Below are positions 1,696 through 37,508 of a stretch of DNA of 64,000 nucleotides, piece by piece. The DNA lies in IMG/VR virus record IMGVR_UViG_3300025121_000014, positions 32,001-96,000 of that record, one strand, 5' to 3'. Made by a program: the position numbers and the translations under genes. Positions within the stretch are counted from its first letter, which is position 1, and every line of letters starts with the position of its first letter. A model generated the notes under the pieces. That model had not been told where the DNA came from. It made no database searches and was given only the letters and a program-made list of their open reading frames with translations. The stretch is from a virus (Duplodnaviria > Caudoviricetes).

Positions 1696-2325
1696 GTTGT
1701 ATCTACCTATCATTCCAAGGTTATATCCAACATTGGTAGTATAAATAGGGATGATTGTTATGTTGTATCTACCTATCATTCCAAGGTTATATCCAACGAA
1801 ACAAGTTTTTTCTGAATTACAGACACTGTTGTATCTACCTATCATTCCAAGGTTATATCCAACTAATTATAAAAATGAAAAGATAATGTAAGGGTTGTAT
1901 CTACCTATCATTCCAAGGTTATATCCAACACTGAATATTTATGGTATTCCGTCTGAAGCGTTGTATCTACCTATCATTCCAAGGTTATATCCAACTCGAT
2001 GGTAAATGCCTTAAACGGTATTAGAGTTGTATCTACCTATCATTCCAAGGTTATATCCAACCATAATCTAATAATGGAATATTACTCCCTCGTTGTATCT
2101 ACCTATCATTCCAAGGTTATATCCAACATATTGGGAAGGTGAACTATTAGCAGGTTCGTTGTATCTACCTATCATTCCAAGGTTATATCCAACGTATTAT
2201 GTGATACTTTTTGTTCTTTATCAGTTGTATCTACCTATCATTCCAAGGTTATATCCAACAAATGATATTTTTAATATACCTATGAACTTGTTGTATCTAC
2301 CTATCATTCCAAGGTTATATCCAAC
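1696..2325 (-). CRISPR. CRISPR array: 10 identical 36-bp repeats and 9 spacers of exactly 30 bp
   Basis: Repeat GTTGTATCTACCTATCATTCCAAGGTTATATCCAAC (+ strand) starts at 1696, 1762, 1828, 1894, 1960, 2026, 2092, 2158, 2224 and 2290 (66-bp period). Minus orientation is inferred from the adjacent effector and tracr-like region, not proven. Confidence 0.98.
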
Positions 2326-2476
2326 CTATGACCATTTAAATACTTAGTTTAAAGATAGTTAGTGAGTGCTTACTGAAATTAAAATATATAATAAAAATAC
2401 AAATGAAACATAAGTCTCTTTATTTTTTAATTTCTACCTCACCGTAAGGGCATACAATTGCCCCATCTAAATATTA
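2326..2476 (-). ncRNA. Candidate tracrRNA/leader between cas12f and the array
   Basis: Minus strand has the hairpin GGGCA-AUUGUA-UGCCC (2448-2463) and a 10/12 anti-repeat CTAACTATCTTT (2351-2362). Position and length are as expected for Cas12f1 tracrRNAs. Confidence 0.5.
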
Positions 2477-3739
2477 TCAAAGAACTTTTTCTTTATTTTT
2501 TAATTTATAATATTGTGTATTTTCATATTTATCAACATATAATTTTGATTTGGCAATATTATATGCTGCATTATAATCAGAATCTATATTTTCATTGTGT
2601 ATTTTACACTTATCATTTTGACATATAAATGTATCCCCATTTCTTTCCCCTATTTCCCCACATATAGAACATATTTGACTAGTATGATAAGGATCGACAA
2701 ATTTCAAGTTTATTCCATAAGAATCTACTTTATATTTTAACTTGTCTATAAAATTAGAAATTGGCCAATATCTAGAAAAAAATGAATTCTTATCAATATT
2801 TCTATTTAATAATTCCATATTAATCTGTTCTACTTTATACTTTATACAAAAATCAATAACCTGTTTACTTAATTTATGTAAAGCAGTATTAGTAAAATTA
2901 ATTTCTTTTTTTCTGATAGTGTCTAAATATTTTAATTTTCTATTTCTACCGTGTCCACCTTTTGCCATAACCATAGATTTCTGGTATTCTCTTCTTTTCT
3001 TATTAATATCCATCTTTACACGGATTAAATCATCAGAATGAATTGATTTTTGTACATGTATATTATCATTTAATCTTATTGATACAAATCGTCTAACACC
3101 TAAATCGATGCCACATACTCTACCTTTTACTTTTTCGTAATCTTCAGATTCTGTTTCATATGTAAATATTATATAATAATGTTTGTCTCTTTTATTGTAT
3201 GTTACGTTAAAAACTCTATTAATATTTAGTGATTTATCATTTTTATCCATTAATCTTTCTAATAGTTTTTTGTTACCACTTTTATCTTTACCAAATAATA
3301 GTTTAAAATCTAATCCATTTTTTATTCTTAATATGATATCATCATTTACATTATGAAAATTTGGATTAATCCCACCACTATTAAATTGGTATATAATAGG
3401 TGCTCCATATTTATATAATCTAGGTGTTCGTTTACCTTTAAATAATCCGTTTTTTATGTCATTAGAAAAATCTTTCTTAACCCTATGACATATATTAGAT
3501 AATATAGCTGTTGGGAATGTTGGATGCAAATCTCTTACAGAGTGATATACTTTTGTTGTTTTTGCAGATTTTACTGGAATAATACTTTCTGACAATTTTT
3601 GTTTTATAAATACCCATTCGTGTGAATATGCATCATTATATATTTTATTTGTTTGATACATTAAATTATTTATATAATCAAATGTATTTTTATTTAATGG
3701 CACTATTCTTATTTTTACTGCGGATATGTATTTATTCAT
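2477..3739 (-). CDS. cas12f: Miniature type V CRISPR effector, Cas12f1-like (TnpB-derived RuvC nuclease), 420 aa
   Basis: RuvC-I GIDLG, RuvC-II INMELL, Zn finger TSQICSICG...CQNDKC and RuvC-III DSDYNAA. The segment AKGGHGRNRKLKYLDTIRKKEINF resembles AsCas12f1 ARGGHGRDKRIKPIEQLRDKIANF as recalled. Directly adjacent to the array. Confidence 0.85.
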   Translation of the reverse strand: MNKYISAVKIRIVPLNKNTFDYINNLMYQTNKIYNDAYSHEWVFIKQKLSESIIPVKSAKTTKVYHSVRDLHPTFPTAILSNICHRVKKDFSNDIKNGLFKGKRTPRLYKYGAPIIYQFNSGGINPNFHNVNDDIILRIKNGLDFKLLFGKDKSGNKKLLERLMDKNDKSLNINRVFNVTYNKRDKHYYIIFTYETESEDYEKVKGRVCGIDLGVRRFVSIRLNDNIHVQKSIHSDDLIRVKMDINKKRREYQKSMVMAKGGHGRNRKLKYLDTIRKKEINFTNTALHKLSKQVIDFCIKYKVEQINMELLNRNIDKNSFFSRYWPISNFIDKLKYKVDSYGINLKFVDPYHTSQICSICGEIGERNGDTFICQNDKCKIHNENIDSDYNAAYNIAKSKLYVDKYENTQYYKLKNKEKVL

Positions 3740-3758
3740 ATTATTGTTTCTTTAATTA

Positions 3759-3790
3759 TAAAGATAAACTAAAAAATAATAAAAACCAAA
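3759..3790 (-). promoter_or_regulatory. Bacteroidota sigmaA-like promoter upstream of cas12f
   Basis: Minus strand TTTG-N20-TATCTTTA, one mismatch to the -33 TTTG / -7 TAnnTTTG consensus, about 20 nt upstream of the ATG. Confidence 0.5.
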
Positions 3791-3837
3791 TATTTTATAA
3801 AATATTTTATATATAGATGTAAAAATAAAAACATTAA

Positions 3838-6846: not shown

Positions 6847-6997
6847 ATTATTAGAATATTTAAATGCTTATAAAATAGATTATATTAATGATAATGATAG
6901 AAAAAGAAAACTTAAAAATATAGTTAATAATATATTCCAATTAAAAGAAAATACTATATCTAATTTTAATTTATTTAAGCATAAATTATTGATTTAA
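6833..6997 (+). CDS. 54-aa ORF starting with a copy of the preceding gene's 5' end (not in ORF track)
   Basis: Reads MLDFKLLEYLNAYKID...HKLLI*. Bases 6833-6852 are identical to 3838-3857 (atgttagactttaaattatt). Confidence 0.5.
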   Translation: MLDFKLLEYLNAYKIDYINDNDRKRKLKNIVNNIFQLKENTISNFNLFKHKLLI

Positions 6998-7324
6998 TTT
7001 TTTTCTTGGTATATAAGATGGTTCTTTTATACCATATTCTATAATTGATTTATATATCGGATTATTAAATTTATATAAAGTATTATCAGTATCAAATTTA
7101 GTTGTAATATATTTTTGTATATATACAAAATCTCTTTGAATATATGTTAATCTTTTATAATTTAAACTTATAAATATACATACAGGATAGTAAGAATTTG
7201 CTCTATTTCCGGAAAAACCAAGCCAATAAAAACCCTTATTAATAAGATATTTTTGTAGTTCATAATATTCATATTCATTAAAACACACAACTGCAATTGA
7301 TCCATATTCATATTTATATATCAT
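6986..7324 (-). CDS. Small paralogue 3 of a tandem family (C-terminal P-x-Y-x-P-R motif)
   Basis: MIYKYE...EPSYIPRKKLNQ, with ATGA overlap with the upstream paralogue. Confidence 0.75.
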   Translation of the reverse strand: MIYKYEYGSIAVVCFNEYEYYELQKYLINKGFYWLGFSGNRANSYYPVCIFISLNYKRLTYIQRDFVYIQKYITTKFDTDNTLYKFNNPIYKSIIEYGIKEPSYIPRKKLNQ

Positions 7325-7662
7325 ATCTTATATCTTGGTATATAATTTGGTACTTCAGTACCATATTTCAATATATGTTTAAGAATATTAATATTATTTT
7401 TATCATATATAAAAGTATTTATAAAATAATTATTATTTCTATTTCTGAAATTTATATATTCTCCTATATTTTTAAAAGAACTACCTTGCATGACGTGATA
7501 TGTAACAACTTTTTTATTTAAATAAATTAATAAATAAATTGGAAGTACATATGGAGTACTTAACATAACTGATATATTATTATCTACGAGAATGTTTTTA
7601 ATATAATTATAATCGATTATATCTATAACATTATATACTATAACATCATATTTAAATTTCAT
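7321..7662 (-). CDS. Small paralogue 2 of a tandem family
   Basis: MKFKYD...EVPNYIPRYKI, with ATGA overlaps on both sides. Confidence 0.75.
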   Translation of the reverse strand: MKFKYDVIVYNVIDIIDYNYIKNILVDNNISVMLSTPYVLPIYLLIYLNKKVVTYHVMQGSSFKNIGEYINFRNRNNNYFINTFIYDKNNINILKHILKYGTEVPNYIPRYKI

Positions 7663-8036
7663 TTTCTTTTACTTCTTGGTCTATAATCAGGAGTAGCAAT
7701 TTTAATACCTAAATTTATTATGTTTTTTAAAATGCTTAAATTATTTTTTTTATTAATTTTTTTATAAACAGTAGGATCTATATTATAATATATAATATTT
7801 CCATGTTCGTCATTAAATGTTGAAATTTTATTATTTCGTAAAAAATATCCATATATTGGATAATATATCGATATTTTTTTAACTATTTTAATTTGTAAAA
7901 AAATTACTAAATAATCATTATTAGATTCATAATTAGAAGTAAAACGATATCCTTTATTTATAAGATACGTTTTAATATCTTGAAAATCATCGTAATCTCT
8001 TGGTTTATAAATTACTACATTGTACTTATATTTCAT
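7659..8036 (-). CDS. Small paralogue 1 of a tandem family
   Basis: MKYKYN...ATPDYRPRSKRK. Confidence 0.75.
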   Translation of the reverse strand: MKYKYNVVIYKPRDYDDFQDIKTYLINKGYRFTSNYESNNDYLVIFLQIKIVKKISIYYPIYGYFLRNNKISTFNDEHGNIIYYNIDPTVYKKINKKNNLSILKNIINLGIKIATPDYRPRSKRK

Positions 8037-12885: not shown

Positions 12886-13352
12886 AAAATATAAAAGGTT
12901 TTAATCAATTTTTAAATGAAGATGGTTCCACAACTGCTGTTGTAGGATCAGGAACTGCCGTAAGTGGTCCATCTTTTTCAAGTGTATCTGTTGCAGGAGT
13001 TAGCATAGACGGTGGGCATTCAACACAAGGGAGTAGTGGTGTATCTACATTAGGCAATGTATCTGGTATGGGAGATGTTGTTTCTGCTCAACCATCTGAT
13101 ACACCAGGTGATGTTGCTGGTAGTACTAAAGGATCAGGTGATATTGGACAAACTTTAAAACCATTTACTAAATCATTTCCTAATACAAGAAAGAAGAAAA
13201 AAGAAAAAAAGAAAAAAACTAATTCTGAAAAAGGAGCACAAATAGATAAATTTTACACTTCTAAATATTCAGAAAAATATATAAAATCTGGAAATGTAAT
13301 TCAAGATTGGAAAACATTTAATAAAGAAAAAAATGGTAATAAAAAAGTTTAA
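12882..13352 (+). CDS. G/S/T-rich low-complexity protein with CTS-like N-terminus (MKNIKGFNQFLNE)
   Basis: 156 aa with a G/S-rich middle and Lys-rich tail. ATGA overlap with the upstream gene. Confidence 0.7.
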   Translation: MKNIKGFNQFLNEDGSTTAVVGSGTAVSGPSFSSVSVAGVSIDGGHSTQGSSGVSTLGNVSGMGDVVSAQPSDTPGDVAGSTKGSGDIGQTLKPFTKSFPNTRKKKKEKKKKTNSEKGAQIDKFYTSKYSEKYIKSGNVIQDWKTFNKEKNGNKKV

Positions 13353-14467
13353 TATTTTTATAAATGAAAATATAACTAGTTTACTTAAAGGAAAATCTAA
13401 TGATGAAATGATTAAAGCATTAGAAGGTTTATCAAATAATAAGAAAATAGAATATATAATTGCATATCAATTAGATTATGATTTATTACCAAGAGATAAA
13501 AATGGTAGATGTATTTATCATAATAATGAAGATGAATATGGTGCTTATAGTTGTAATCTAACTGGTTATGGGATAAAAAAATTACCTGATAATTTAACAG
13601 TTCATGGTAATCTGATTTGTAATAATAACCCAGAATTAACTGAATTGCCTAAAGGATTAATCGTTAATGGTGATATGTATTTTTTTGATTATCCTAAAGA
13701 ATTAAAATTACCACATGATATACAATTAAGTGGAAAATATTATCATAGTATTAAAGGTAAAAAATTAATAATAGAAAATATAAAAGATTTACTTAAAGGT
13801 AAATCAGATGATGAAATTGAAAAAAAATTAAAAGTAAGTTCTGACGAAAATATAGCTCGTGGTGTGTTTAGTTATAATTTACCACTTAAATATTTACCTA
13901 AAAATTATGATAAATTAGTAAAAGATATTATTAAAGAAATAAAAGAACTTGTTAAAGAATATGGTGGTAATATTACTGTATATGATTTGGGTGTAGAAAG
14001 TATTGATTATGAAGGTGAAACACATTATTATGCAATATCTGTATTAACTACTGATTATGTATGGGTAGAGGAATATCTATTAACTGATTTTACTAAAAAT
14101 AGAACATATGAAGCACCATATGAAGAATTAAATTATTATCAATTAAGTGAAATAAAAGAAACAATAGAATGGGCAATTGGATCAGGAAATTTAGAACATA
14201 AATTATATGAAAGTGTTAAAGATTTATTAAAAGCAAAATCATATGAAGATGTTGAAAAACAATTAATTGGTTTATCGGATTTAGAAAGAATTATAAAAAT
14301 AGAAGAACACGATTTACCAAAAGAATATTTACCAAATAATTATAACGATATTAAAAAAATACTTATAAATGGTATTAAAAGCAAATTAAAACAGTTTAAT
14401 AATGTTTTAAATTTTTTAAATGATTTTGATTTACAAGACGAATTATATTTATACCCATATATTTTAT
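13333..14467 (+). CDS. 5' part of a modular LRR-containing CTS-like protein, interrupted by the TnpB element
   Basis: Three xE-(N/S)(I/V)xxLLKxKS modules and LPDNLTVHGNL repeats. It rejoins 15764-16308 in frame when the IS is removed (559 aa total). The annotated ORF runs on into the IS left end to 14562. Confidence 0.7.
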
Positions 14468-15763
14468 ACATCTTGTCAAAGAAAACCACCAAATCTTCAG
14501 TTTGGTGGATGAATTTGACTTCCAAAAACGGAAAAAACAGACTTTTAACTTTTAATATATAATTTAAAGGAAAAATAAAATATCTTTAAAAATGTTAAAA
14601 TCATATAAATACAGAATATACCCAAATCAAGCCCAAAAAGAACTTCTTTCAAAGATTTTTGGTCAAGTAAGATTTGTATATAATCTTGGTTTAGAAACTA
14701 AAATAACAGCATATACAGGAAACAAAAAAAATATTGATGTGTTTGATTTAAATAAGCAAATTAAAGAATTAAAAGATAATGAATGTGAATGGTTAAAAGA
14801 AAGCCCATCACAAGCACTTCAAATGAGTATGTCTAATCTAGATAATGCTTATACAAATTTCTTTAGAGGAAAAGGTTTTCCAAAATTTAAGAATAAATAT
14901 TCAAAACAATCATTTCAACTACCACAAGGTGTTTGGTTATCAGATAATAATAAACAAATTTTTATACCGAAATTAAAATTCACCGATATAGATTTACATC
15001 GTGAATTTAAAGGCGATATTAAAACTGTAACAGTAAGTAAATCAATAACTAATAAATATTATATATCAATTTTAACAGATAATTTACAACCTAAACCAGA
15101 AAAAAAACCAATTAAGTTAAATACAACAATTGGAATTGATTTAGGGATTAAAGATTTTGCTATCACTTCAGATGGAAAGAAATTCAAGAACCACGATTTC
15201 TTTAAATCTGCTTTAAGAGAACTAAGGGTTGAACAGCGATCTCTTAGTAGGAAAAAGAAAGGATCAAACCATTACAATCAACAAAAAATGAAAGTCGCTT
15301 TAATACACGAACACATTAAAAATCAAAGAGAAGATTATTTACATAAAATCAGTAAATATTTAGTTGATAATTATGACACTATATGTATTGAAAATCTTGG
15401 TGTATCTAATATGATTAAAAATCATAAATTATCTAAAGCAATATCAGATATGGGATGGAATAAATTTAAATCTATGCTTGATTATAAATGTGAATGGTAT
15501 GGTAAAAATTTAAGTGTGATTGGTAGATTTGATCCGTCAAGTAAATCATGTAGTTCTTGTGGGACAATAAATAAAGAATTAACATTAAAAGATAGAGAAT
15601 GGGTTTGTAAAGAGTGTGGTGTTAAACACGATAGGGATATTAATGCTGCAATAAATATAAGAAATTTTGGGTTGAGGAACCAACCTAGCGTCACACAAAG
15701 TGAATGGTTGCATTGTGCTTGTGGCGTAGAAACACACAAATCTTCAGTTTGTGTGTAGTTCAT
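14468..15763 (+). mobile_element. IS200/IS605-family TnpB-only (IS1341-like) element, 1296 bp
   Basis: Preceded by TTTAT (14463-14467). Left-end hairpin gtcaaagaaaaccaccaaatcttcagtttggtggatgaatttgac; right-end hairpin gaaacacacaaatcttcagtttgtgtgtagttcat. No tnpA. Confidence 0.85.
14592..15758 (+). CDS. tnpB: TnpB RNA-guided endonuclease
   Basis: N-terminal YKYRIYP HTH, GIDLG, ICIENL, CSSCG...CKECG and HDRDINAA. The stop codon lies inside the right-end hairpin. Confidence 0.95.
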   Translation: MLKSYKYRIYPNQAQKELLSKIFGQVRFVYNLGLETKITAYTGNKKNIDVFDLNKQIKELKDNECEWLKESPSQALQMSMSNLDNAYTNFFRGKGFPKFKNKYSKQSFQLPQGVWLSDNNKQIFIPKLKFTDIDLHREFKGDIKTVTVSKSITNKYYISILTDNLQPKPEKKPIKLNTTIGIDLGIKDFAITSDGKKFKNHDFFKSALRELRVEQRSLSRKKKGSNHYNQQKMKVALIHEHIKNQREDYLHKISKYLVDNYDTICIENLGVSNMIKNHKLSKAISDMGWNKFKSMLDYKCEWYGKNLSVIGRFDPSSKSCSSCGTINKELTLKDREWVCKECGVKHDRDINAAINIRNFGLRNQPSVTQSEWLHCACGVETHKSSVCV

Positions 15764-17095: not shown

Positions 17096-17539
17096 ATGAT
17101 TTATAAATTTAGTGAATTTGAAAGATTAAATGAGGAAACAAAACCAAGTAAAATATATAAAAATGTTATGTTTGATGATTACGAAATTAGAATTGGTCGT
17201 AATAGTCAGGTCAATGATATATTAACATTTGAATATGCTAATGATAATGATTTATGGTTTCATGTTAGTGGATACCCTGGTTCACATGTTGTAATAAAAG
17301 TTAAGGAAAATCAAGAAACACCAAACAAAGTTATTTTAGAAGCTTCTAGATTAGCTATTTATAATTCTAAGGCAAAAGGAAAAGGATTAGTTAAAGTAGT
17401 CTATACAGAAAGAAAAAACGTTACTAAGACCGATAAACATAATCCAGGGCAAGTTAGTGTTGATTATAGTAAATCAAAATTTATAAAAATAGAAGTTTTA
17501 AAAAAATATAATATAAATGAAACATATAAAAATATTTAA
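17096..17539 (+). CDS. Stand-alone NFACT-R (DUF814, RqcH-type) RNA-binding domain protein
   Basis: IRIGRNSQVNDILTF...DLWFHVSGYPGSHVVIK...ASRLAIYNSKAK...VVYTERKNV. CTS-like N-terminus MIYKFSEFERLNE. Confidence 0.85.
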   Translation: MIYKFSEFERLNEETKPSKIYKNVMFDDYEIRIGRNSQVNDILTFEYANDNDLWFHVSGYPGSHVVIKVKENQETPNKVILEASRLAIYNSKAKGKGLVKVVYTERKNVTKTDKHNPGQVSVDYSKSKFIKIEVLKKYNINETYKNI

Positions 17540-31206: not shown

Positions 31207-32880
31207 ATGCCAAAAATTCAAGGAAAACAAATAGCAGATAAAACAATAGATCAAGCAAATATATTATTGACTACACCAACGATAACTGATACGTTATCAG
31301 CAGTAACAGTAGAATATGTAACTACTGCTATATCAGCAGTTACTAGTACAAGTGGTATACTTGGTATACCTACTGACGGTTCATATTCTGATGGTATATT
31401 TACTGATTGGACTAGTGGTACAACAGTTGCTAATATGGCTGATGCTGTTAACGAAATGCTTTTATTATTGGCACCTTCACCTCCTTTAACAAGTTGGGAT
31501 AATGTTTTTAGTAATTTAAATATTGGTGGTACTTTATACGAAAGTATGAAAATAGCTGGTGGAACAACAACAACAACATCTTCTATAACAACAAATACTA
31601 CACCCGATATATCAGTTAGTGTTATTAGTTTAACAGGATCAGCAGCAAGATCAAGAGATGGTGGTATTTTTACTCTAAGTGATACTGTTCATAGTACCAT
31701 AGAAACAGTAACTTTAACAACAAGTTCTGTTACTAAATCTAGTGGATGGATTAGATATACAATAGCTGATCCATATTATGGGATAGCAGGTCAAGCTGGT
31801 TTTTGGACGGGTGTTACCGCATTCAGTTTAACTGATAGTACAAGTGCATTTACACCAAGTGCTACTTTAAGAACACTAACTTTTGCTCATCCTGGTACAG
31901 ATACACCAGAAACAAAAAGTTTTTATGTAGATGAAGTTGCAAGTACAGTAGTAGTAACAACTAATAGTGAAACTATGCCTACTATGTCATCTTATATATC
32001 AGGTATTCCAACTTTATCATATGGACAAAGTATTACAAATGTTGATTTTGATATTGCAGGAGCAGTTAAATGGTTTTATAATCCTACTATATGGAAAATA
32101 AATGGATCATATGTAGTAGATACTGGATGGTCTGTACCAACAGGTGTTCCAGCAGCAAATGTAACATATAATGAAACAGGCGCATCTGTAAATATTGCAA
32201 ATAATGTATTTAATGATAATAGTTTTTCGTATACTTTAAATGGAAGAAATATACAGGGAACATCTGATACAGATGTAGTTACAAAATCTACATATAGAAT
32301 TGATACAAAATCTGTTGAAACTAGTAGAAAATTATCTGGTACAGGTCCATTTCCTACAACTGCTTTATCTAATTATTATTATGGTACTTGGGTATCTTCA
32401 TCAGATTTAACCACAGGAGATTGGGTTAGAGAATTAATGATGAAAGAAGGAAAATATCAATGGCCAGGTAGTATTGATTATTCCGCTTATGGAGGACCTA
32501 ATTATTTATCTGTTACTGGTGGTGACACACATGTAGATTCACTTAATTATAGATGGGCTTGTTTTAGTGTTGGTTCAGTATCAAATGATACTAATTTTAC
32601 ATTTACTATAAATGGTGTAGAAAATTTTGGTTCAACAAATATAATAACTGGTATAAAATTATATGTAAGAGTAGTTGGTGCAACTGGTACAGCCTGGTTA
32701 GATGCTAATGCTGCTTGGGGTGGTGCTACTGGTGATAGTGATGGAGATGCTATGTTGGTGTTTGGTGAATCAACAGTAACAACAAGAAAAGTTACATTTG
32801 GATCAGTTAGAACAGGTACAGTATATGTTAGAATCGGTTTACAATCAGGTAGTACAAAGAAATTTACAAGTATAAGTTAA
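31207..32880 (+). CDS. S/T/G-rich putative virion structural protein
   Basis: 557 aa. MPKIQGKQI N-terminus, beta-rich composition. Confidence 0.7.
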   Translation: MPKIQGKQIADKTIDQANILLTTPTITDTLSAVTVEYVTTAISAVTSTSGILGIPTDGSYSDGIFTDWTSGTTVANMADAVNEMLLLLAPSPPLTSWDNVFSNLNIGGTLYESMKIAGGTTTTTSSITTNTTPDISVSVISLTGSAARSRDGGIFTLSDTVHSTIETVTLTTSSVTKSSGWIRYTIADPYYGIAGQAGFWTGVTAFSLTDSTSAFTPSATLRTLTFAHPGTDTPETKSFYVDEVASTVVVTTNSETMPTMSSYISGIPTLSYGQSITNVDFDIAGAVKWFYNPTIWKINGSYVVDTGWSVPTGVPAANVTYNETGASVNIANNVFNDNSFSYTLNGRNIQGTSDTDVVTKSTYRIDTKSVETSRKLSGTGPFPTTALSNYYYGTWVSSSDLTTGDWVRELMMKEGKYQWPGSIDYSAYGGPNYLSVTGGDTHVDSLNYRWACFSVGSVSNDTNFTFTINGVENFGSTNIITGIKLYVRVVGATGTAWLDANAAWGGATGDSDGDAMLVFGESTVTTRKVTFGSVRTGTVYVRIGLQSGSTKKFTSIS

Positions 32881-35046: not shown

Positions 35047-36144
35047 ATGAATGTTGCGATAACTTTTGGTGTAACAAACCCTAATTTTAGTGTTTGGAGT
35101 AGTGGTGCATTACAAAATGTATTTTTCTTATACATGATATTAAAAAATATTAAAGATATTAATGTTTATCTTGTTAATTTTGGTATTCCAATTGATGAAC
35201 TTAATGGAGATGAAATATTTAATATAAATGAATTCGAATTCACAAAATGGGATGATATTAAAAATAAAGTAGATTTATTTATAGAAGCAGGAATAAAAAT
35301 TAATGTAGAAATAACTAAAGAATTAAGGTTACGTGGAACTAAAATTGTTATGTATCGTATAGGAAATGCTTATATTTTAGATAATGAAGATATTCTTTTT
35401 AATCCATCTAATAACGAAATTTATAGTGATATTTATGATGAAATCTGGACATTACCACATCACGAAAAAACAAGTAAATTTTATTTAGAAGAAATTTATA
35501 AATGTCCTGTTAAAATATTACCTATGATATGGGATACATATTTCATCGATAAATATAATTTAAGTTTAAAAGAAAATGGTATGAATCCTTTTTTCAAATT
35601 TGAAGGATGGATAAAAAATAAAAAAAATATAACTATTTTTGAACCAAATATAAATGCAATTAAAACATCTATTTATCCAATGTTAATTGTAGAAAGGGCT
35701 TATAATAAAAGACCTGAATTATTTGGAAAAGTTAGAGTATTAAACTCTATGAAATATAATCAAAATAAAAAATTTGTTTCCTTAGTAAATAAATTAAATA
35801 TTAAAAGATATGGCATAGCCACATTTGAAGATAGATTTAATACACCATATATTTTATCTAAATATACTGATATTGTAGTTTCTACACAATGGGAAAATGA
35901 ATTAAATTATTTATATTTTGATGTTCTTTATAATAAATATCCATTAATTCATAATTCACCAAGAATTAAAAAAGCAGGATATTATTATAAAGATTTTGAT
36001 ATCGAAACAGCAAGTGACCAATTAATTAAATGCATTATAAAAGATGATAGTAAATTAAACGAAAGACGAACTAATAATTTATTAGAAGAATTCTCTATTT
36101 ATAATATTGAAAATATAACTGCTTATGAACTACTACTACACTAA
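35047..36144 (+). CDS. DUF2827-like (GT-B glycosyltransferase-like) protein
   Basis: IFEPNINAIK...YP, VVSTQWENELNYLYFDVLY...PLIHNS...GYYY. The last 5 codons come from the IS right end. Confidence 0.7.
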   Translation: MNVAITFGVTNPNFSVWSSGALQNVFFLYMILKNIKDINVYLVNFGIPIDELNGDEIFNINEFEFTKWDDIKNKVDLFIEAGIKINVEITKELRLRGTKIVMYRIGNAYILDNEDILFNPSNNEIYSDIYDEIWTLPHHEKTSKFYLEEIYKCPVKILPMIWDTYFIDKYNLSLKENGMNPFFKFEGWIKNKKNITIFEPNINAIKTSIYPMLIVERAYNKRPELFGKVRVLNSMKYNQNKKFVSLVNKLNIKRYGIATFEDRFNTPYILSKYTDIVVSTQWENELNYLYFDVLYNKYPLIHNSPRIKKAGYYYKDFDIETASDQLIKCIIKDDSKLNERRTNNLLEEFSIYNIENITAYELLLH

Positions 36145-37508
36145 AGATGTAGTAGTTTCTGGAACATAATGTTCCTTCTCTTTAAGCGTTTCACAGATTA
36201 CGCCAGATTTCTCTAGTCTTATTTGGTCTCCGCGCTCGTAATCAGTCGTTCCAACTGATATATTTATTCTATATCCTTCGTTGAGAATATTAGTTGCTGC
36301 GTTAAAATCTCTATCGTGTTTTTCACCACATTTGGAACAAATCCAATATCTATCTTTGATTGTTAAATTATTGTTTATCCAACCACATTTAGAACAGGTT
36401 TTAGATGAAGGAAAGAACCTATCTATATGAACTACAGATTTATCATTCCATAATGATTTGTAATCTAAAACTTGAACGAATGTTCCCCAACTAACATCAC
36501 TAATTGCTTTTGATAGTTTATGATTTTTCATCATTCCTTTTATATTTAAGTCCTCCAAGTAAATTGTATCAAATTGTTTGATTAAATTAATGGTTGTTTT
36601 TTGTATTAAATCCATTCGTGAGTTAGTAATTTTTTCGTGTATTCTTGCTATTTTAATTCTTTGTTTTTCATAACGAACTGATTTAATGGTCTTTCGTGAT
36701 AGATATTGTTGATTTAATTTTAAAATCCTTTCGTAATGTTTTAGAAATCTATGGTTCTTGATTTTCGTTCCATTAGACAACACTAAAAAATCTTTTATTC
36801 CTAAATCTATTCCTACTGATAATCCTGTTTTATTAACTGAATTGTATTCCATTTCAGTTAAAATCGAAACAAAGTATTTTCCAGTAGGTTTTTTTAATAT
36901 AGAACAATGTTTGATTGTTCCTTTTATTTTTCTTTCCATTATCATTTCAATACCATTTCTAAACTTTGGTATGATTAGTTTATCTTTCTTTACTGAAACA
37001 AATTGGGGTATAGTAAATGAATTTTTCGATTTCCTTGATTTAAACTTTGGAAATTGTGTTCTTTTTTTAAAAAAACCATCATAAGCAGTATCTAAACAAT
37101 TTAAAGAAAATTGAAGTGTCTGTGAGTTTATTTCCTTCAACCATTTCTTATCATCGATTTTTTTTAATTGTGTTAGTTCTTTTGATTGGTCATAATAATT
37201 TAAAGTTTTCTTATTGTTTAAATATTCATCTTTTCTTTGATTTAAAAAATAATTATATACGAACCTCACTGAACCAAAGTGTTTATTCAATAACACTTGC
37301 TGTTCTTGTGTTGGTTCTAATCTAAACTTATATGTATATTTAATTGTTTTCATCTGTTTTTATGTTAAATTTTATTCTAACATAACTATATATAATTAAA
37401 AATATATTACTTTTTTCCATTTTTAAAAATGGTTTAAAATAATTAAAGAGTTAGGTGTCAAATTCATCCATTAAACTGAAGATTTAACGGTTTTCTTTGA
37501 CAGATTAA
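36125..37508 (-). mobile_element. IS200/IS605-family TnpB-only element, 1384 bp
   Basis: TTTAT target at 37509-37513 (minus strand). Left end gtcaaagaaaaccgttaaatcttcagtttaatggatgaatttgac; right end gaaactactacatctttagtgtagtagtagttcat. Confidence 0.85.
36136..37353 (-). CDS. tnpB: TnpB RNA-guided endonuclease
   Basis: YTYKFRLEP, GIDLG, IYLEDL, CSKCG...CSKCG and HDRDFNAA. Confidence 0.95.
   Translation of the reverse strand: MKTIKYTYKFRLEPTQEQQVLLNKHFGSVRFVYNYFLNQRKDEYLNNKKTLNYYDQSKELTQLKKIDDKKWLKEINSQTLQFSLNCLDTAYDGFFKKRTQFPKFKSRKSKNSFTIPQFVSVKKDKLIIPKFRNGIEMIMERKIKGTIKHCSILKKPTGKYFVSILTEMEYNSVNKTGLSVGIDLGIKDFLVLSNGTKIKNHRFLKHYERILKLNQQYLSRKTIKSVRYEKQRIKIARIHEKITNSRMDLIQKTTINLIKQFDTIYLEDLNIKGMMKNHKLSKAISDVSWGTFVQVLDYKSLWNDKSVVHIDRFFPSSKTCSKCGWINNNLTIKDRYWICSKCGEKHDRDFNAATNILNEGYRINISVGTTDYERGDQIRLEKSGVICETLKEKEHYVPETTTSLV

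Follow-up and report, generated by a model that had tools for sequence, protein, structure and literature searches.

The 64,000-nucleotide stretch of DNA analysed here, referred to below as the window, comprises positions 32,001 to 96,000 of the IMG/VR virus record IMGVR_UViG_3300025121_000014 (Duplodnaviria; Caudoviricetes). It contains a CRISPR locus that is very probably a functional type V-F1 (formerly V-U3) CRISPR-Cas12f1 cassette carried by a huge tailed phage that has an AT-rich genome and occurs in metagenomes from groundwater and soil. The initial annotation, made from the sequence alone, had described a phage-borne minimal Cas12f locus without adaptation genes, and in this respect it was borne out, the locus being intact.

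All parts of the cassette would be transcribed on the minus strand, beginning with the cas12f gene (3739 to 2477), followed by a trans-activating CRISPR RNA (tracrRNA) of ~125 nt within a 151-bp gap, and ending with an array of ten repeats (2325 to 1696). Each repeat of the precursor CRISPR RNA (pre-crRNA) would then be bound, through its 3′ half, by the anti-repeat of the tracrRNA, and trimming of these duplexes would yield guides (crRNAs) that consist of a short repeat-derived 5′ handle and a spacer. By analogy with CnCas12f1, RhCas12f and Al3Cas12f, two copies of Cas12f are expected to bind one tracrRNA:crRNA, the resulting dimer would recognise a 5′ protospacer-adjacent motif on double-stranded DNA, and a single RuvC site (D212/E309/D388) would cut both strands. 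In the solved structures, Cas12f dimers are held together on the guide RNA.

The effector protein

The gene product is a RuvC protein of 420 aa with all three catalytic motifs, as had been noted initially, and the open reading frame (ORF), the codons and the alignment agree on this point. The triad D212/E309/D388 is invariant in an alignment with 26 relatives and aligns to the RuvC motifs of CnCas12f1 (HMMER), and its codons can be read in the DNA at 3104-3106, 2813-2815 and 2576-2578, respectively. Three zinc-finger cysteines (C357, C360 and C373) are likewise invariant in that alignment, and a fourth also lies in the TNB finger. The RuvC/TNB architecture of a V-F1 effector, i.e., about 400-700 aa with a C-terminal split RuvC domain that holds the D/E/D residues and is interrupted by a zinc finger, is present in full, and at 420 aa the protein is among the smallest Cas12f sizes compared (RhCas12f 415 aa, AsCas12f 422 aa).

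In Pfam, the protein matched Cas12f1-like_TNB (1.3e-15) together with OrfB_IS605, and in NCBIfam it matched guided_TnpB (3e-42), with Cas12f2 as the next match. A sequence search of the PDB returned CnCas12f1 (8HR5, 2.2e-48), RhCas12f (9NZP, 1.2e-44) and Al3Cas12f (9NZO/9NZR, 6e-44), with ISDra2 TnpB far behind at 3e-8; RhCas12f, the Alistipes protein Al3Cas12f and OsCas12f (9NZQ) were described in a 2026 paper (PMC13186708). An AlphaFold2 model with a pLDDT (predicted local distance difference test) of 84 was compared with solved structures using Foldseek, which gave template modelling (TM) scores of 0.76 for CnCas12f1, 0.69-0.73 for AsCas12f and 0.66-0.70 for Al3Cas12f, and of 0.44-0.59 for TnpB structures.

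The nearest proteins, at 39% identity, come from IMG/VR contigs 422 and 676 kb long. In the tree, inferred by maximum likelihood, the window protein formed a fully supported clade with the huge-phage proteins of loci L001 and L057 (39-40% identity), inside a group with 97% support in which an adjacent array was detected for 41 of the 68 rows, many of the remaining rows being at contig ends or having arrays that the detector missed. The tree was rooted on the window's own two TnpBs with a helix-turn-helix (HTH), and the long branches leave its deepest order unsure. The placement that the initial annotation had proposed as a check accordingly came out with the protein among array-bearing Cas12f relatives and apart from these TnpBs. 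On its sequence and modelled fold, the protein is assigned to Cas12f1 of type V-F1.

The matches to TnpB families in Pfam and NCBIfam, and the presence of two true TnpB genes in the window, could suggest a TnpB gene of the ordinary transposon kind, equipped with an omegaRNA and lying beside an unrelated or decaying orphan array. TnpBs of the IS200/IS605 group have an N-terminal HTH, their omegaRNA ends at the right end of the transposon with the guide derived from the flanking DNA, and they are often accompanied by tnpA and by insertion sequence (IS) ends. The gene studied here lacks the N-terminal HTH (HTH_OrfB_IS605), unlike the window's TnpBs at 14592 and 36136, and its product is far closer to validated Cas12f than to ISDra2 TnpB in both sequence (2e-48 versus 3e-8) and fold (TM 0.76 versus 0.49-0.59). 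The RNA predicted downstream fits a model of Cas12f tracrRNAs and would pair with the array's repeat (see below), the unit of gene, RNA and array recurs in other phages with different flanks, and all ten repeats are identical, unlike what decay would leave behind. The flanking ORFs of at least 120 aa gave no match to a transposase family, and the gene is followed by an array, not by an IS end. Such a transposon TnpB is therefore highly improbable, and the assignment to Cas12f1 is retained. The resemblance to ISDra2 TnpB (8EXA/8H1J) points to common ancestry, with a shared RuvC and zinc-finger core and a scaffold RNA just past the 3′ end of the gene; what sets the window's Cas12f apart from IS200/IS605 TnpBs, besides the missing HTH, is that no tnpA or IS ends were seen and that the guide would be supplied through a separate tracrRNA:crRNA duplex.

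The tracrRNA

The gap between the ORF and the array, recounted as 151 bp (2326-2476) in agreement with the initial annotation, is judged on comparative grounds to encode the tracrRNA. When 16 related loci were compared 3′ of the stop codon, a shared order of elements was seen: a GC-rich hairpin, a short linker, a GAGG strand that pairs with a later CACTC, and a last stretch that complements the 3′ half of each locus’s own repeat. The corresponding parts in the window are a GC hairpin at 2464-2447, a GGTGAGG at 2443-2437 that would pair with CACTCAC at 2368-2362 around a long AT-rich stem, and then the anti-repeat.

Two covariance models were used to search for this RNA. The first (R1), built from 12 Alistipes-type loci and with 17 covarying pairs in its stem 2, found the huge-phage locus L090 (E 1.7e-4) and ranked 2345-2470 on the minus strand first in the window with 16.5 bits. 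The second (R2), built from 24 relatives with L090 included and the window left out, gave the same interval and strand as its sole match in the window (21.5 bits, E 0.014) and also matched L057 and L001 directly 3′ of their genes. Matches at the expected place and strand were in this way obtained for the window, L003, L057, L001 and L090. The stretch folded at −28.2 kcal/mol in RNAfold (z −2.43), with only 3 of 200 shuffles folding better, and Rfam and tRNA scans matched nothing.

A motif, (G)TTCTTTGA(A/T)AT, is conserved in the window (2479-2487, minus strand), L001, L057, L008 and the Alistipes-type loci. In the first four its position coincides with the final codons of cas12f and the stop codon, and in the Alistipes-type loci it follows the stop codon at a distance of 30-40 nt; the tracrRNA may include this motif in its 5′ portion.

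The array and its orientation

The array was counted again and consists, as first described, of ten perfect 36-bp repeats and nine 30-bp spacers, each spacer being distinct and the repeat copies starting exactly 66 bp apart. On the minus strand the repeat reads GTTGGATAT...GATACAAC. A 24-mer of the repeat had no match in JGI metagenome contigs. The features of the locus are collected in Table 1.

Table 1. Features of the Cas12f locus, with positions in the window.
Feature	Position	Strand	Remarks
CRISPR array	1696..2325	−	ten 36-bp repeats, all identical, with nine 30-bp spacers
tracrRNA-array junction (leader end)	2326..2344	−	TTTAAAT..GGT..ATAG abuts the first repeat; common to L001 and L057 (intergenic comparison)
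tracrRNA core, predicted, ends approximate	2345..2470	−	covariance models, shared element order
Candidate anti-repeat CTAACTATCTTT	2351..2362	−	predicted pairing partner GATAGGTAG, within the 3′ half of the repeat (minus strand)
cas12f gene, 420 aa, ATG start	2477..3739	−	ORF; N-terminal half WED/REC, split RuvC, TNB zinc finger
Possible sigma-70-like promoter of cas12f, TTTACA-N18-TATAAA	3794..3823	−	spotted by eye only

The pairing of the candidate anti-repeat would leave a tail of ~7 nt ahead of the spacer. It ends at repeat position 30 and begins at anti-repeat position 4, the register being that of most of the 16 relatives. For the 28 nt that follow CACTCA, the duplex with the minus-strand repeat comes to −11.1 kcal/mol, a value that 3.3% of shuffled repeats equal, whereas with the plus-strand repeat the same 28 nt reach −3.2 kcal/mol, and 97% of shuffles are as good. 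Across the loci compared, the pairing favoured the gene-strand repeat in 15 of 17.

The comparison of strands bears on an alternative in which transcription of the array would use the plus strand and converge with that of cas12f, perhaps as read-through from a 268-aa gene, with the repeat end ...GGTTATATCCAAC as the handle. This repeat end resembles the Alistipes-type ...GAATATCCAAC, the plus-strand repeat agrees with one Alistipes repeat at 28 of 36 positions, and the 268-aa gene stops at 1688, i.e., 7 nt lie between it and the array, which starts at 1696. What makes the plus-strand array improbable is, besides the pairing energies, that L001 and L057 have the same conserved junction of tracrRNA and repeat and show strong pairing of their gene-strand repeats (−12.7 and −19.9), and that nearly all relatives with 36-nt repeats have the array co-directional with the ORF that precedes it. 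Plain repeat identity to V-F relatives (58-78%, on either strand) overlaps with that to a II-C repeat (64-67%), and thus separates neither V-F from II-C nor one strand from the other.

We conclude from the pairing and the layout that the minus strand is the one read for the gene, the tracrRNA and the array alike and that the leader faces the gene, so that the minus-strand reading of the repeat as the functional one, as in the initial annotation, still stands. The leader end is likely the gene-proximal end of the array; in the relative L001, the degenerate repeat is the gene-distal one.

Relatives and the origin of the repeat format

When one genome was scanned for each prokaryote species, 49 related loci were obtained, the majority from Alistipes, Rikenellaceae and other Bacteroidales and some from Clostridia, and IMG/VR held at least 472 related stretches, with relatives on contigs of 364-676 kb. 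Loci of the Bacteroidota branch and those of the huge phages (L001, L057 and L090) mostly have a co-directional array just 3′ of the gene, its repeats being 36 nt and its spacers ~30 nt long and the repeat ends mostly GTTG...CAAC. Since the 36/30 format with these ends is common to the Cas12f1 branch, it is native to the branch and inherited together with its tracrRNA, not adopted by this phage. It had been proposed that a TnpB-derived effector adopted a VI-B-like array, and this had to be given up, given that relatives with V-F loci already share the repeat format and that the tracrRNA is predicted to read the 3′ half of the repeat.

Type VI-B systems have Cas13b, with two HEPN domains, beside the array, and a crRNA with a 3′ repeat handle and no tracrRNA. 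Membership in type VI-B was considered for the window’s locus and rejected, as the adjacent gene is a Cas12f, a tracrRNA is predicted, and Pfam scans of all 41 window ORFs of at least 120 aa reported no HEPN or Cas13 family. The geometry that had been called VI-B/II-C-like is indeed present, with 36-bp repeats, 30-bp spacers and GTTG...CAAC ends, but it does not discriminate, being found equally in the Cas12f branch and in a II-C array, and a 36/30 GTTG...CAAC array is therefore no signature of type VI-B. The background statement that arrays of this kind occur in type VI-B and can be fed in trans by II-C Cas1-Cas2 agrees with Hoikkala et al. (PMC8092290).

Repeats also vary within the group. 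L001 and L057 have nearly identical Cas12f genes, with tree branches of about 0.03, and in the stretches compared (L001 7263-7785, L057 7260-7843) their tracrRNAs are common up to CACTCACTAAATACCTT; beyond it the repeats of the two loci clearly differ, and the distal anti-repeat and the leader differ in step. From these sequences it looks as if the array and the distal tracrRNA had been swapped as a module. The repeat class tracks the host taxon within the Cas12f1 group (L005, L014, L046; L087, L095, L110, L117; L022-L048): repeats and spacers measure 36 and 30 nt, respectively, in the Bacteroidota loci, 29-30 and 35-37 nt in Clostridia and their phages, and 29 and 32 nt in the Chloroflexota and Desulfobacterota loci. 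The Clostridia-type and the Chloroflexota/Desulfobacterota-type repeats presumably resemble type I-B and type I-E repeats.

Adaptation genes and spacer turnover

No cas1, cas2 or cas4 was found in the Pfam scans of the window ORFs, and Cas1 and Cas2 profiles built from retrieved proteins gave nothing credible in 331 six-frame fragments of the window, the two scans agreeing with what had been stated at the outset. Cas1 is also absent from five related phage genomes whose records were covered in full, with an estimated completeness of 98-100% for four of them. Adaptation genes are not adjacent to the locus in the bacterial relatives either, where Cas1 was present elsewhere in 7 of 10 genomes. 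The Alistipes-type genomes examined have Cas1 on other contigs, and three retrieved Cas1 regions are cas9-cas1-cas2 sets (two confirmed by Pfam), one of which is followed by a 36/30 array of 13 repeats with GTTGT...ACAAC ends.

Turnover of spacers was followed in other samples. An ENA groundwater assembly (L003) encodes an identical protein next to 7 repeats, with three gene-distal spacers missing and the shared ones unchanged. Contig pieces from three further samples have spacers 5, 6 and 7 unchanged and hold no unknown spacers, and the check for turnover in the contigs of four runs gave no array variants and no new spacers. A 594-base “skip” was considered as an array variant and rejected as a repeat collapse in a k=31 assembly. 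As the phage lacks Cas1, Cas2 and Cas4, the nine spacers would act as a fixed set, and nothing suggests that its array acquires new ones.

These observations bear on the idea that the 36/30 GTTG...CAAC format is itself an adaptation, one that lets a II-C (or VI-B-serving) Cas1-Cas2 of the host add spacers in trans, the phage thereby outsourcing adaptation. Its starting point is an experiment in which a VI-B array without cas1 was supplied by II-C Cas1-Cas2, with 36-bp repeats that share the GTTGT end (PMC8092290). The cas9-cas1-cas2 sets on other contigs of Alistipes-type genomes with a related Cas12f, one with a matching array, would fit such an arrangement, as would the tendency of the repeat class to track the host taxon and the different repeats of nearly identical huge-phage Cas12f genes. 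The idea is weakened by the spread of the format across the whole branch, which makes it inherited, and by the resident arrays beside Cas1, which share the geometry of the Cas12f array in just 2 of 4 genomes, the identity to the II-C repeat of the same genome being low (13/36). Furthermore, the three other samples hold no new spacers, the sole variant (7 repeats) merely lacks three gene-distal units, and genes of the phage show no upstream enrichment of the −7 promoter motif known from Bacteroidota. Outsourced adaptation is thus an unlikely explanation, and an inherited format remains the preferred one.

Expression and spacer targets

How cas12f is expressed can be approached through the promoters of the phage. 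A motif, TAATATATAA, i.e., T(A/T)ATATATA(A/G), lies ~20-40 nt before many start codons, e.g., at 850-859 and 3807-3816, and is often followed by TATAAATA. Within 100 nt upstream of the start, 42 genes yielded 13 occurrences, as compared with 0.8 expected, and the motif is probably the phage’s own promoter. The motif is missing from its usual position, ~30 nt before the cas12f start, and cas12f may therefore be expressed differently. The initial annotation had placed the locus behind a host-type promoter, which could not be confirmed: the TTTACA-N18-TATAAA site in Table 1 is absent from a sigma-70 consensus scan, and the scan found 19 promoter-like sites as against 25.4 in shuffles, i.e., no excess.

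By analogy with other phage CRISPR systems (PMC7162821), the nine spacers are most likely aimed at competing mobile elements or at the host. One candidate target was rejected: a 20-mer of spacer 7 matched a 1.4-kb metagenome contig (L144), with 23 of 30 positions agreeing and the last ten at chance level, and by a rough estimate about one 20-mer match is expected by chance in that collection.

Several results speak against a functional cassette and have to be set beside the evidence above. The spacers had no credible match in GenBank phages (all E of 2 or more) or in five whole huge-phage records, no credible protospacer was found in the window and the related loci with 8 or fewer mismatches allowed, and 22-24-mers of spacers 7, 5, 4, 6 and 2 had no match in IMG/VR. 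The sigma-70 scan lists no site upstream of cas12f, and none of the runs matched to the locus is an RNA run. The tracrRNA score is modest (E 0.014 under a rough calibration), and pairing of the anti-repeat involves a short duplex rich in A and T, with a p of about 0.03. Finally, the repeat is quasi-palindromic, and its plus strand equals or exceeds the minus strand in similarity to the repeats of relatives (up to 28/36); since identity is undecided on the strand, the orientation rests on the tracrRNA pairing and the conserved layout.

Phage context and occurrence

The window is 25% G+C and codes mostly for ORFans. Its PHROG matches include virion structural proteins, a tail-spike and a lysis amidase, which supports the locus being phage-borne, and a 3059-aa protein matches two phage families. 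No near match to the window was found in the GenBank phage collection, and exact peptide patterns from the Cas12f protein did not retrieve it from IMG/VR. An identical Cas12f protein occurs on 5 contigs, and the locus is present in runs of 5 studies covering groundwater and soil. The flanks of the cassette show no synteny with L001, L057 or L090, which indicates that the cassette sits at different places in different huge phages.

Several other genes of the window were noted in passing. The canonical TnpBs with HTH_OrfB_IS605 are at 14592-15758 (plus strand) and 36136-37353 (minus strand); the first belongs to a very large metagenomic family with at least 8000 candidates, 73-96% identical among the matches listed, and just upstream of it lies a 409-aa ORF (13333-14562) with no Pfam match. 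Three tandem paralogous small genes at 6986-8036 on the minus strand encode proteins of 112-125 aa with a C-terminal motif ending in ..P.YIPR.K and have no family match, and a 147-aa protein encoded at 17096-17539 on the plus strand has an NFACT RNA-binding domain (E 3e-18), which is unusual for a phage.

Comparison with known systems and significance

The closest characterised systems are those of CnCas12f1, RhCas12f and Al3Cas12f, which belong to the same family by sequence (E 2e-48 to 6e-44) and fold (TM 0.66-0.76) and have the same RuvC and zinc-finger motifs. The order of elements in the single guide RNA of Al3Cas12f (PMC13186708), i.e., a GC hairpin, a UUAG-type linker, a GAGG...CACUC helix and the anti-repeat, is shared by the tracrRNA predicted here. 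The window protein differs in being 22-27% identical to the chains of these three by Foldseek and in lacking ~85 N-terminal residues relative to CnCas12f1. Compared with validated Cas12f systems, the predicted stem 2 of the tracrRNA is much longer and AT-rich, the anti-repeat pairing is weaker, and the system is encoded by a phage, not by a bacterium.

The VI-B system of Flavobacterium columnare (PMC8092290) similarly has an array without cas1, with 36-bp repeats, ~30-bp spacers and a GTTGT/ACAAC end, that is transcribed from the leader end. It differs in having Cas13b, whereas the window has a Cas12f that would cut DNA and a predicted tracrRNA, no II-C system or host has been linked to the phage, and no acquisition was seen.

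Systems of type V-F without adaptation genes have been known in huge phages since 2020, when V-F (Cas14) variants with a compact type V effector beside a short array and no Cas1, Cas2 or Cas4, as in the window, were described (Al-Shayeb et al. 2020, PMC7162821), and more have been found in later surveys (PMC11748809, PMC12607003). The locus is a further example of the known phage Cas12f systems and introduces no new principle. Compact genome editing, and the study of CRISPR systems directed by phages against phages or hosts, may profit modestly from a Cas12f that has 420 aa, seems intact and comes with a predicted tracrRNA.

A broader proposal, which we consider doubtful, is that arrays of the Cas12f1 (V-U3) branch, this phage’s included, copy the repeat length, spacer length and end motifs of the host’s adaptation-competent system, which would be II-C in the case of Bacteroidota and of other types elsewhere. 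Spacers could then be loaded by the Cas1-Cas2 of the host into a mobile cassette that has no adaptation genes, and the array and the distal tracrRNA would be exchanged as a module on a change of host. The hint that adaptation-less Cas12f arrays may follow the resident system of the host is the only part of these findings that could lead somewhere new.

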